From Candidatus Moraniibacteriota bacterium (GTDB lineage Bacteria > Patescibacteriota > Minisyncoccia > Moranbacterales > GCA-2747515): 64,000 nucleotides of DNA. Under the pieces are notes generated by a model. The model worked only from the letters and a program-made list of their open reading frames with translations, made no database searches and was not told where the DNA came from. The stretch lies in assembly GCA_016699795.1 (NCBI GenBank), contig CP065011.1, positions 755,449 through 819,448 of the forward strand, given 5' to 3'. Position numbers and translations under genes: made by a program. Every line of letters starts with the position of its first letter. Positions within the stretch are counted from its first letter, which is position 1. Of the stretch, positions 13,873 to 16,863 are shown in pieces.

Positions 13873-16863
13873 ATGCTGAATATTATATGTATGAAATATC
13901 AACCTCGAAAAATTGAGAAAAAATGGCAAAAATATTGGGAAGAAAAGAAGACATTCAAAGACTATTCGAAAAAAGAGAAATTTTACGCTTTGGATATGTT
14001 TCCCTATCCATCAGGATCAGGTCTTCACGTAGGACACCCTAAAGGATATATCGCAACAGATATTTCTGCGCGTTTTGAAATTTTACGAGGAAAGAGTGTT
14101 CTTCATCCGATGGGCTGGGATGCCTTTGGACTTCCCGCAGAAAATTATGCTATCAAAAACAAAATACATCCTAGTGTTGCGGTGAAAGAAAATATAAAAA
14201 AATTCAAAGAACAACTTCGAAAAATTGGATTTACGTATGATTGGGATCGAGAAATTAACACAACAGATCCAAAATATTATAGGTTCACGCAATGGATATT
14301 TCTTAAAATGTTTGAAAAAGGTCTTGCTTATGAATCCTATGAACCAATTAATTGGTGTCCAGGATGTAAGACAGGTTTGGCAAATGAGGATTTGGAAAAT
14401 GGATTGTGTGAACGGTGTGGATCTGAAATTGAACAAAAACCAATGCGTCAGTGGGTACTAAAGATGACGGAGTATGCCGATCGACTTCTTGAAGATTTGG
14501 ATATAAAAGATTTAGATTGGGAAAAATCCATTATAGATCAACAGAAAAATTGGATAGGTCGTTCAGAAGGAGTTGTTGTAAAATTCCCTCTTAGTATTGA
14601 GAAAGATGAAGCGACGAAGCAATCCAAAAAAAGTGCGTATGAAGAAGGAATTAATAGTCAAAAAAGTACCCATGATAAAAATTTTATCGAAGTCTTTACG
14701 ACGCGAGTAGATACTATTTTTGGATGTACCTATATCGTCGTTGCTCCGGAGCATCCTTTGATGAAATCTCTTTCTTCTTGTTCCTCTCGCAAAGAAAAAA
14801 CTTTAGAAATCTGTATTTCAAATTTGGATGAAGTAAAGCATTATATTGAACAAGCAAAGAAAAAAACGGTGATGCAAAGAACGGAGCTTGCCAAAGAAAA
14901 AACGGGAGTTGAGCTTAAAGGAGTGCGAGTAATAAATCCATTCAATGGAGAATCTGTCCCAGTGTTTGTTGCTGATTATGTATTAGGTTCTTATGGTACT
15001 GGTGCAGTTATGGCTGTTCCATCTCATGATGATCGGGATTTTGAATTTGCAAAAAAGTATAATCTTCCACTTCGTCAGTCGGTAGCTATTCTTTTTTCGG
15101 ATTTAGAGGGAAAGGATGCGGTTAGAAAGGATGCTGAAACTGTCCGTCGAAGAACAGCATTTGCTTTTTTAAAGCATTGGTCTGAAGATGCGTATCTTTG
15201 TCTTGATTGGGAGAAATTTGGCTGGCATTCAGGAATTATTGGAGGTGTTGAAGATAAAGAACAATTTTTAGATACAGCAAAACGTGAAATTATCGAAGAA
15301 ACAGGATATCAAAATCCAGAATTTGTTCGTTTTCTTGGAGGAGAAATACATACACATTTTTATGCGGCACATAAAGGAATAAATAGATATGCTGAAGGAA
15401 GGGGAATGGTATTTCAACTTAAAAATGATAAATGGAAATCGCCGAAAGAGGAAGAAACTTTGAATCATAAAGCTGTATGGATAACGGGCGATAAAATGAA
15501 AAGTTTTTTGAATCTCGAGAATTTTGAATATATGTGGGAGATTCTTTGTGGTAAAAAATCAGAATGTTTTACTGGAGAAGGAGTGCTGGTAGATTCAGGA
15601 GAATTCACGGGACTTTCTTCTCAAGAGGCGCGAGAAAAAATGACGAAATGGCTTGAGAAAAAAGAAAATGGAAAAAGAACGGTGAATTATAAAATGAGGG
15701 ATTGGGTTTTTTCTCGTCAAAGGTATTGGGGCGAGCCCATACCTATTATTCATTGTAAGCAATGTAGGGCTGTGGGAGTTCCTGAGGAACAATTGCCAGT
15801 TATACTGCCCGATGTGAACTCTTATGAACCTACAGGAACGGGAGAATCACCTCTTTCTGGGATTGAAAGTTGGGTTAATACCGTATGCCCCAAATGTGGT
15901 GGGCCAGCGAAACGTGAGACGAATACAATGCCTCAATGGGCGGGATCATCGTGGTACTATCTTTCTTATATTGTAAAAGTTGATTCTGAATTTCAATTCT
16001 CAAATTCTAGTCTTTATAGTCAATGGCTTCCTGTAGATCTTTATGTAGGGGGAGCAGAACATGCGACGAGACATCTTCTTTATGCTAGATTTTGGCATAA
16101 ATTTTTGTATGACATAGGAATAGTTCCTACGAAAGAGCCTTTCAAAAAATTAGTACATGTGGGGCTTATCAATGCTGCAGATGGTCGCAAAATGAGTAAA
16201 CGCTGGAATAATGTTATTAATCCTGACGATGTAGTGGCAGAATTTGGCGCCGATTCTTTGCGATTGTATGAAATGTTTATGGGGCCTTTTACACAAAAAA
16301 TTGCATGGAATACAGAAGGGGTGAGTGGTGTGAGAAGATTTCTTGAAAAAGTTTGGCGACTTGGAGAAAGAGTCTCGATAGATAATCAGCTTGTAATGAA
16401 AGATACGACTAAAAACTTGCTTCATAAAACTATTAAAAAAGTAACAGAAGATATTGAAAATTTTCGATTTAATACAGCGATAAGTTCCCTTATGATTCTT
16501 TCTCATGATATGGAAAAAGAAAAAGAACTTCCAGGTGAACTGTATAAAATTTTTCTCCTTCTTTTGTCTCCCTTTGCTCCTCATATAGCAGAAGAGCTTT
16601 GGGAAAAAATGGGACATAAAACATCTATTTTTCTTGAGTCATGGCCGGAATATAGCAAGGAAAATATACAGGATGCTTATAGCAATTTTGTTTTTCAAGT
16701 GAATGGAAAAACTCGAGATATACTTGTATTGAAGACAAATATTTCTGAAGAAGAAATTAAAAATAACGCACTTTCAAATCAGAAAGTACAAAAATTTATT
16801 GAAGGAAAAGAAATCCGAAAAATTATTTTTGTAAAAGGAAAATTGATAAATATTGTTGTGTGA
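13873..16863 (+). CDS. leuS: Leucyl-tRNA synthetase with an inserted Nudix-hydrolase domain
   Basis: HIGH motif HVGHPKGY and KMSKS motif KMSKRW. Editing-domain block [26 protein letters not shown]. Catalytic-core blocks [21 protein letters not shown] and [22 protein letters not shown]. Between editing and catalytic blocks (aa ~415-565, nt ~15115-15570) sits a perfect Nudix box [23 protein letters not shown]. The Met at 13891 may be the true start. Confidence 0.95.
   Translation: [996 protein letters not shown]

Follow-up and report, generated by a model that had tools for sequence, protein, structure and literature searches.

Why should a leucyl-tRNA synthetase (LeuRS) carry a second enzyme domain inside its proofreading domain, and what would that domain do there? 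To our knowledge, synthetases are among the most conserved enzymes, and those of bacteria have rarely gained new catalytic domains. The question is raised by the leuS gene in a stretch of 64,000 nucleotides (nt) from contig CP065011.1 of a Candidatus Moraniibacteriota bacterium; the whole 64-kb stretch is called the window below. The product of this gene contains a complete Nudix domain. We favour, with moderate confidence, the reading that it is a working LeuRS with an autonomously folding, catalytically competent Nudix pyrophosphohydrolase in a loop of the CP1 domain, next to the editing motif. This would be an apparently active second enzyme within the LeuRS proofreading domain, occurring across a radiation of ultra-small bacteria.

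The inserted domain and the synthetase around it

In the list of open reading frames (ORFs) of the window, leuS is a single frame of 996 amino acids (aa). NCBI has a protein with 100% identity that starts at Met7 and has 990 aa; it is encoded on a 1.19-Mb contig of a metagenome-assembled genome (MAG) of Candidatus Moraniibacteriota, a member of the Candidate Phyla Radiation (CPR, Patescibacteria). The window protein scores 985.3 bits with TIGR00396 (leuS_bact), an equivalog hidden Markov model (HMM) with a cut-off of 548.4, and matches the Thermus thermophilus LeuRS 1h3n with an E value of 4e-205. The match to TIGR00396 is broken in two by the insert. It is because of the insert that annotation pipelines downgrade the protein: the PGAP name of the NCBI copy is just 'class I tRNA ligase family protein'. 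Conservation in the synthetase body was read from an alignment of 96 sequences of LeuRS relatives (alignment A1). Insertion sites are called A (the N-side CP1 hinge), B (behind the editing motif) and C (within the second half of the catalytic core). The gene has the following features.

13873-16863, forward strand: leuS, bacterial-type LeuRS of 996 aa; alternative start Met7 at nt 13891 (NCBI)
14026-14037, forward strand: HIGH signature of the synthetic site, here HVGH, aa 52-55; H52, G54 and H55 are invariant in A1
14596-14685, forward strand: site A insert, a 30-aa linker rich in Lys, Glu and Ser, aa 242-271, at the N-side CP1 hinge; absent from T. thermophilus LeuRS
14686-15081, forward strand: core of the CP1 editing domain, aa 272-403, with TTRVDT (276-281) and VPSHDDRD; Pfam PF13603 at 1e-52
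15082-15564, forward strand: site B insert, a full domain of predicted Nudix fold, aa 404-564
15241-15309, forward strand: Nudix box GX5EX7REUXEEXGU, 23 residues, aa 457-479, with the putative catalytic residues E472, E475 and E476
15358-15387, forward strand: X-loop region and subfamily signature, with F496-Y497 (+17/+18 past the box) and H500-K501-x2-N504-R505
15565-16182, forward strand: CP1 return strand (a 17-residue block) and second half of the catalytic core, aa 565-770, aligned with T. thermophilus 376-579
16183-16860, forward strand: KMSKS loop, anticodon-binding domain and C-terminal domain; PF08264 at 1.5e-23
16189-16203, forward strand: KMSKR, aa 773-777; K773, M774 and K776 are invariant in A1

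The CP1 editing motifs show no variation in A1 at T276, T277, D280, T281, H385, D386, R388 and D389, and the editing Asp is D386 within VPSHDDRD. The leucine-specific domain is absent, as residues 580-636 of the T. thermophilus enzyme have no counterpart in the window protein (aa 768-773, in the region of window 16174-16186). With the motifs of both the synthetic and the editing site intact, the product is predicted to be a working bacterial-type LeuRS.

The site B insert comprises 161 aa. It lies within CP1, directly after a 26-residue editing motif and before the return strand. In the alignment with 1h3n, the span from residue 403 to residue 565 pairs with T. thermophilus 361 to 376, and about 147 residues are extra in the window LeuRS. 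The Pfam NUDIX model PF00293 matches the insert alone with 32.6 bits (E 9e-8) and the whole protein with 29.4 bits, the gathering cut-off being 21.1. At the last 'U' of the Nudix box the window copy has a Tyr, which 92% of the subfamily share. No other Nudix box was found when the window was translated in six frames. In AlphaFold2 models, the insert alone reached a predicted local distance difference test (pLDDT) score of 95.8; within the full-length model (mean 85.9, predicted template modelling score 0.78) the same residues scored 91-96. The modelled insert has the alpha/beta/alpha Nudix fold. A Foldseek search with it returned 463 PDB matches at E<=1e-3, Nudix proteins throughout among the matches listed. 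When PDB sequences were searched with a profile of the family, 2azw came out on top, followed by the lupin Ap4A hydrolase 1f3y, AvrM14 effectors and the Aquifex Ap4A hydrolase; the insert as a single sequence had PDB matches at E>0.1 only. Hence the insert is, as far as sequence and modelled structure tell, an autonomously folding Nudix domain in a CP1 surface loop right behind the editing motif. The 30-aa insert at site A, in contrast, is predicted to be disordered (pLDDT <50).

An earlier note on this DNA, made from the letters alone, had proposed a LeuS with an inserted Nudix domain. The proposal is borne out by the PF00293 score above the cut-off, the full Nudix box and the assignment of the ORF to TIGR00396; the profile search and the structure prediction that it had named as checks both point to a Nudix domain. 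Its positions need small corrections. The range 15115-15570 falls inside the insert except for the last two codons, the full insert being about 15082-15564, and the textbook box placed at nt 15238-15306 lies one codon further downstream. A second, Lys/Glu-rich insertion at nt ~14590-14680 was likewise recognised correctly and corresponds to the site A linker.

Conservation within the Nudix domain was calculated over 275 domain instances. In the box, G457 is conserved in 97%, G458 in 96%, E463 in 81%, R471 in 83%, E472 in 99%, E475 in 97%, E476 in 99% and G478 in 98%. Among the site B copies, E472 is present in 178 of 179, E475 in 175 of 179 and E476 in all 179. The same pattern holds at every insertion site and in stand-alone copies. 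The substitutions E463Q or R471A are found in a minority of the copies, chiefly those of site A. Outside the box a set of subfamily-specific residues stands out: R426 (95%), K501 (99%), N504 (96%), R505 (88%), L516 (95%), H532 (85%) and W536 (98%). In the X-loop the consensus residues are F496 (72%) and Y497 (51%). These values point to strong purifying selection on the metal-binding glutamates and on R426, K501, N504, R505, H532 and W536. As the glutamates are conserved to 97-99%, Nudix activity is probably retained in the window LeuRS. The pattern as a whole speaks for a conserved enzyme acting on a conserved substrate rather than for a structural relic.

Distribution, insertion sites and cassette exchange

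Is the window LeuRS a single oddity? PF00293 is present in 105 of the 120 closest LeuRS homologues, which answers the survey of orthologues suggested at the outset. An exhaustive HMMER search with the insert alone against 1.84 billion cluster representatives gave 296 matches at E<=1e-3, of which 170 had E<=1e-10. Mapping with pieces of the window protein identified most of the 296 as LeuRS or LeuRS fragments of CPR bacteria with the Nudix domain at the same position. A word-index search with the insert alone had one match, a 127-aa fragment (P0001). GTDB was scanned at one genome per species with an alignment of 10 Nudix sequences as the query; about 73 of the 80 loci found are LeuRS with the insert. 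They belong to Moran-, Komeili-, Taylor-, Kaiser-, Magasanik-, Berkel-, Buchanan- and Adlerbacteria and to Paceibacterota, and some of these lineages read TGA as a sense codon (code 25). By these searches the LeuRS-Nudix layout is a lineage-wide trait in the CPR.

The domain is found in LeuRS at all three sites, with 179 instances at site B (the window copy included), 41 at site A and two at site C. LeuRS with two or three Nudix copies exist; one from Taylorbacteria (L011) has 1735 aa and three copies. In the three-copy proteins (L011; P0056, P0069, P0122, P0123) two copies lie ahead of the core of the editing domain and one behind it. Other cassettes occur at these sites too. Site A ranges from 3 to 32 aa among relatives, and in other CPR LeuRS it may hold a Nudix domain, a Ham1/ITPase or an alpha/beta-hydrolase (Ser_hydrolase). 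Site C of other CPR LeuRS may hold a HAD domain. Relatives with alternative cassettes are P0012, P0010, P0069, P0086, P0117, P0007 and P0096.

Site B was compared among close Moranbacteria relatives, whose LeuRS cores are 68-78% identical to that of the window. Their junctions (LP[IL][RK].. / ..CFTxDG) are identical, but the contents differ: a second or third type of Nudix domain, a Pol-beta-like nucleotidyltransferase, unknown cassettes of 120-136 aa, or only a linker of 17-42 aa. Moreover, the identity of the Nudix domains to that of the window is discordant with the identity of the LeuRS cores. This discordance suggests that cassettes at site B have been exchanged, or gained and lost repeatedly. 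By sequence, the Nudix domains at this identical LeuRS junction belong to two distinct lineages at least, and probably to three. A break in GC content or skew at the borders of the window insert was looked for and none was found, and thus the insert has no such signature of recent horizontal transfer. Since close syntenic relatives lack the insert or have another cassette at the same junction, we infer that the Nudix domain is accessory to aminoacylation itself.

A gene for a DUF4349 membrane protein (window 12549-13553, forward strand) lies directly upstream of leuS, and in one relative (L090) the same gene lies about 3.3 kb, or two genes, upstream of a leuS without the insert. The presence or absence of the Nudix domain therefore changed inside a conserved neighbourhood.

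Other class I synthetases were seen with and without such cassettes. The ValRS of the window (51635-54325, reverse strand, 895 aa) is of ordinary length and has no inserted domain; as an internal control, it indicates that a class I synthetase of this genome need not carry a cassette. A histidine-phosphatase domain (His_Phos_1) is inserted in the catalytic/CP1 region of an IleRS-like class I enzyme of about 1170 aa (L081:7386-10889, L082:7387-10890, L088:1-435). At two of these loci (L081 and L082) more Nudix genes, a dUTPase, a thymidylate kinase and an NTPase_I-T lie near the IleRS-like gene.

The same Nudix subfamily occurs outside LeuRS. A ProRS of 643 aa (PF00587, PF03129 and PF09180; L084:2906-4837, L086:2762-4693) carries it between the anticodon-binding and C-terminal domains. 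Five cases of stand-alone members (160-185 aa) were examined: two lie 2-3 nt upstream of leuS, one 13 nt downstream of argS, one two genes upstream of the Nudix-bearing proS (L086) and one right after fpg/mutM. Judged from these sequences and gene orders, the insert defines a Nudix subfamily associated with aminoacyl-tRNA synthetases, being found in LeuRS, in ProRS, or beside leuS, proS or argS.

A further form consists of stand-alone proteins of about 287 aa (L039:3689-4552, L061:3671-4531 and an ORF of about 288 aa in L050), from MAGs labelled Clostridia, Clostridiales and Bacteroidaceae. They are colinear with aa 348-592 of the window LeuRS at 31-33% identity (E 1e-38 for L061, 5e-34 for L039) and extend from the C-terminal portion of the editing domain CP1 through the Nudix domain to the return strand of CP1. 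They have lost the editing Asp (VPAHIPEH or VPLHVKEH). Their neighbours include genes for a cytidylate kinase, a CYTH protein, a histidine phosphatase, a GNAT protein and an APH kinase. These proteins look like a LeuRS-derived mini-protein.

Candidate functions of the Nudix domain

What could a Nudix hydrolase do within a LeuRS? In the reading that we favour, it would hydrolyse a nucleoside-polyphosphate compound that is important where tRNAs are charged. The likeliest substrates would be dinucleoside polyphosphates such as diadenosine tetraphosphate (Ap4A), diadenosine triphosphate (Ap3A) or ApnN, which would be turned back into ATP or ADP and AMP; this choice of substrate class is tentative and may well be wrong. 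In a genome with few regulators, about 1.2 Mb in size, covalent insertion would guarantee that the domain is made constitutively and 1:1 with an essential enzyme. Ap4A is weakly indicated as the best single guess, and a plausible one, because synthetases produce Ap(n)N dinucleotides as side products, because the nearest characterised relatives of the domain in structure and sequence include Ap(n)A hydrolases (Ap4A/Ap6A hydrolases at 15-20% identity), and because its X-loop is aromatic at F496/Y497. The X-loop, about 17 aa past the Nudix box, is a determinant of specificity, and a Tyr there correlates with ApnA hydrolases (Dunn 1999, as reviewed in PMC5389931). In ApnA hydrolases the Tyr is expected 16-18 residues past the box, where the window copy has F496 at +17 and Y497 at +18; the position is a correlate and not a proof. 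If the domain acts on by-products of the synthetase or on tRNA ends, it would tie tRNA charging to the metabolism of dinucleotide alarmones or RNA ends and offer a natural system to study Ap4A turnover.

Several observations weigh against this reading. The identity of the domain to any characterised Nudix protein is only 15-20%, and the best structural match, 2azw, is a protein of no known function. Nudix equivalog models of NCBIfam (MutT, RppH, NudB, NudE and others) reached at best 11-17 bits, compared with cut-offs of 80-400. ArgRS makes no Ap4A, and the adjacency of a stand-alone member to argS therefore does not fit the Ap4A rationale. The member behind fpg/mutM hints at a MutT-like role, and other stand-alone or derived members lie amid house-cleaning genes (dUTPase, cytidylate kinase, CYTH, NTPase_I-T). 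Finally, no Nudix gene was found within 4 kb of the insert-less leuS at three loci of relatives; LeuRS thus has no need of a Nudix enzyme in cis.

The clearance of aminoacyl-adenylates, which had been put forward together with that of Ap4A in the earlier note, appears unlikely on chemical grounds. Aminoacyl-adenylates are acyl-phosphate anhydrides and not diphosphates, and therefore their hydrolysis would be no typical Nudix reaction.

The alternative with the most in its favour, a real possibility although one that we would not expect to prevail, is that the domain is a house-cleaning cassette which merely travels with LeuRS. It would be a general sanitiser of the nucleotide pool (a MutT-like 8-oxo-(d)GTPase, or an NTP or ADP-sugar pyrophosphatase), without mechanistic link to leucylation, placed in a surface loop that tolerates insertions, within an essential protein that is made constitutively from a streamlined genome. 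Much of what was described above is consistent with this: the LeuRS loops of relatives hold other house-cleaning enzymes (Ham1/ITPase, HAD, alpha/beta-hydrolase, nucleotidyltransferase), an IleRS-like synthetase has its His_Phos_1 insert, and the Nudix domain comes and goes among close syntenic relatives. In addition, fpg/mutM precedes one stand-alone member, the CP1-fragment proteins without the editing Asp lie beside cytidylate kinase, CYTH and histidine phosphatase genes, and the automatic JGI name is MutT. Yet the tie of the subfamily to synthetases is both repeated and specific, with three sites in LeuRS, an insertion in ProRS and operon adjacency to leuS, proS or argS in four of the five stand-alone cases. 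Also, the arrival of at least two, probably three, Nudix lineages at the identical LeuRS junction looks like selection for Nudix chemistry at this place. Should the domain be a mere hitch-hiker after all, it would show how organisms with reduced genomes fit house-cleaning enzymes into their essential genes, and it would mark places in LeuRS that tolerate insertions and are of use in protein engineering.

A more far-reaching interpretation, which we regard as rather unlikely, is that the synthetases of the CPR are scaffolds on whose fixed hinge loops nucleotide-processing cassettes can be interchanged. Judged by sequence, these would comprise three or more Nudix lineages, a Pol-beta-type nucleotidyltransferase, Ham1/ITPase, HAD, histidine phosphatase and alpha/beta-hydrolase. 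The Nudix domain of LeuRS would then act in cis, either destroying Ap(n)N at its source or repairing or uncapping the ends of bound tRNA. If this were true, LeuRS would have a second built-in quality-control activity beside its editing site and would represent a new class of bifunctional synthetase.

A related proposal confines the action in cis to RNA ends. The Nudix domain would strip a pyrophosphate-linked group from tRNA-Leu, such as a 5'-triphosphate, a cap (NAD or Np4N) or a pyrophosphate that a toxin has added to the 3'-CCA, and LeuRS would be a repair-and-charge enzyme. The insertion lies within CP1, the editing domain that binds the tRNA 3' end, and at the identical junction relatives have a Pol-beta-like nucleotidyltransferase, a fold used by enzymes that modify tRNA 3' ends. 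The mRNA-decapping AvrM14 Nudix effectors are among the best matches in sequence and structure, and tRNA is the only substrate that LeuRS, ProRS and ArgRS have in common. All of this is circumstantial, however. The insert of ProRS, between the anticodon-binding and C-terminal domains, is away from the acceptor end, the stand-alone and CP1-fragment versions occur without a synthetase body, and the models for RppH and YtkD score far under their cut-offs. We consider this proposal improbable.

It is more doubtful still that the Nudix fold is a non-catalytic module with a structural, tRNA-binding or ligand-sensing (regulatory) role, like NrtR or other Nudix pseudo-enzymes. Nudix domains without enzyme activity are known (PMC5389931), and the copies with E463Q or R471A could be seen in this light. 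In the window copy, however, all residues of the box are canonical, and the family-wide conservation of the three metal-binding glutamates is stricter than a purely structural role would lead one to expect.

That a Nudix gene was joined into leuS by a chimeric assembly, for which the earlier note had allowed, or by an error of annotation is suggested only a priori by the use of MAGs and is effectively refuted by the unbroken reading frame with conserved LeuRS sequence on either side, by the same in-frame insertion with identical junctions (LP[IL][RK]... / ...CFTxDG) in hundreds of independent assemblies (NCBI, JGI, ENA, Logan) and in complete chromosomes, and by a composition without a break at the insert.

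Known systems and other features of the window

The LeuRS of T. thermophilus (1h3n/2byt) and Escherichia coli (4aq7) have the same order of parts as the window LeuRS, namely Rossmann core, ZN1, CP1, KMSKS, anticodon-binding and C-terminal domains, and their HIGH, KMSKS and T-rich motifs and editing Asp are all found in it. The window protein differs from the T. thermophilus enzyme by the 161-aa Nudix domain in the CP1 loop (T. thermophilus 361-376), by the 30-aa disordered hinge insert and by the lack of the leucine-specific domain. With the Nudix Ap(n)A hydrolases of Aquifex (aq_158, 3i7u), T. thermophilus (Ndx1, 1vc8), Mycobacterium tuberculosis (Rv2985, 9cxx), lupin (1f3y) and Chlamydia (CT771) its Nudix domain shares 15-20% identity. 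Unlike these free-standing enzymes it is embedded in a synthetase, and its subfamily has a signature of its own (R426, HK-x2-NR, H-x3-W). The Enterococcus faecalis protein 2azw, a structural-genomics entry of the MutT/nudix family, is a stand-alone protein from a Firmicute with 18% identity in which K-x2-NR is not conserved.

The nearest parallel in architecture is the NCBIfam exception model NF040702 ('isoleucine-tRNA ligase, N-acetyltransferase domain-containing'), which likewise describes a synthetase with an extra catalytic domain of another superfamily, but differs from the window LeuRS in both the synthetase and the inserted domain. LeuRS-Nudix is a further case of a synthetase with an accreted enzyme domain, here a Nudix hydrolase. 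A curated model for LeuRS-Nudix was not found. Literature searches on LeuRS or other aminoacyl-tRNA synthetases with Nudix, on Patescibacteria with synthetase insertions and on Nudix with tRNA pyrophosphorylation returned nothing relevant, and the term 'tRNA synthetase' is absent from the main text of the 2017 review of the Nudix clan (PMC5389931). LeuRS-Nudix sequences are public with automatic Pfam labels, yet the architecture is apparently undescribed; the earlier note, which knew of no description, agrees with this. The scale is considerable: lineages number in the hundreds, copies may be multiple, the cassettes have alternatives, and there are ties to ProRS and ArgRS.

Some other features of the window may be mentioned. 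No tRNA genes (ARAGORN) and no Rfam families at gathering score were found in the whole 64 kb, and with Rfam neither a T-box nor another leader was detected ahead of leuS. A gene on the forward strand (17885-18541), about 1 kb past the end of leuS, encodes a nucleotidyltransferase toxin domain of the AbiEii type (type IV toxin-antitoxin, PF08843). A 96-aa ORF (17676-17966) lies upstream of this gene and overlaps it; it might encode the cognate antitoxin, whole or in part. Two giant proteins of 1639 aa (22496-27415) and 2300 aa (56814-63716), both encoded on the forward strand, have repeated Pur_ac_phosph_N/fibronectin-III-like domains and are probably cell-surface proteins. A similar protein of 2469 aa is encoded near leuS in one of the relatives (L089).

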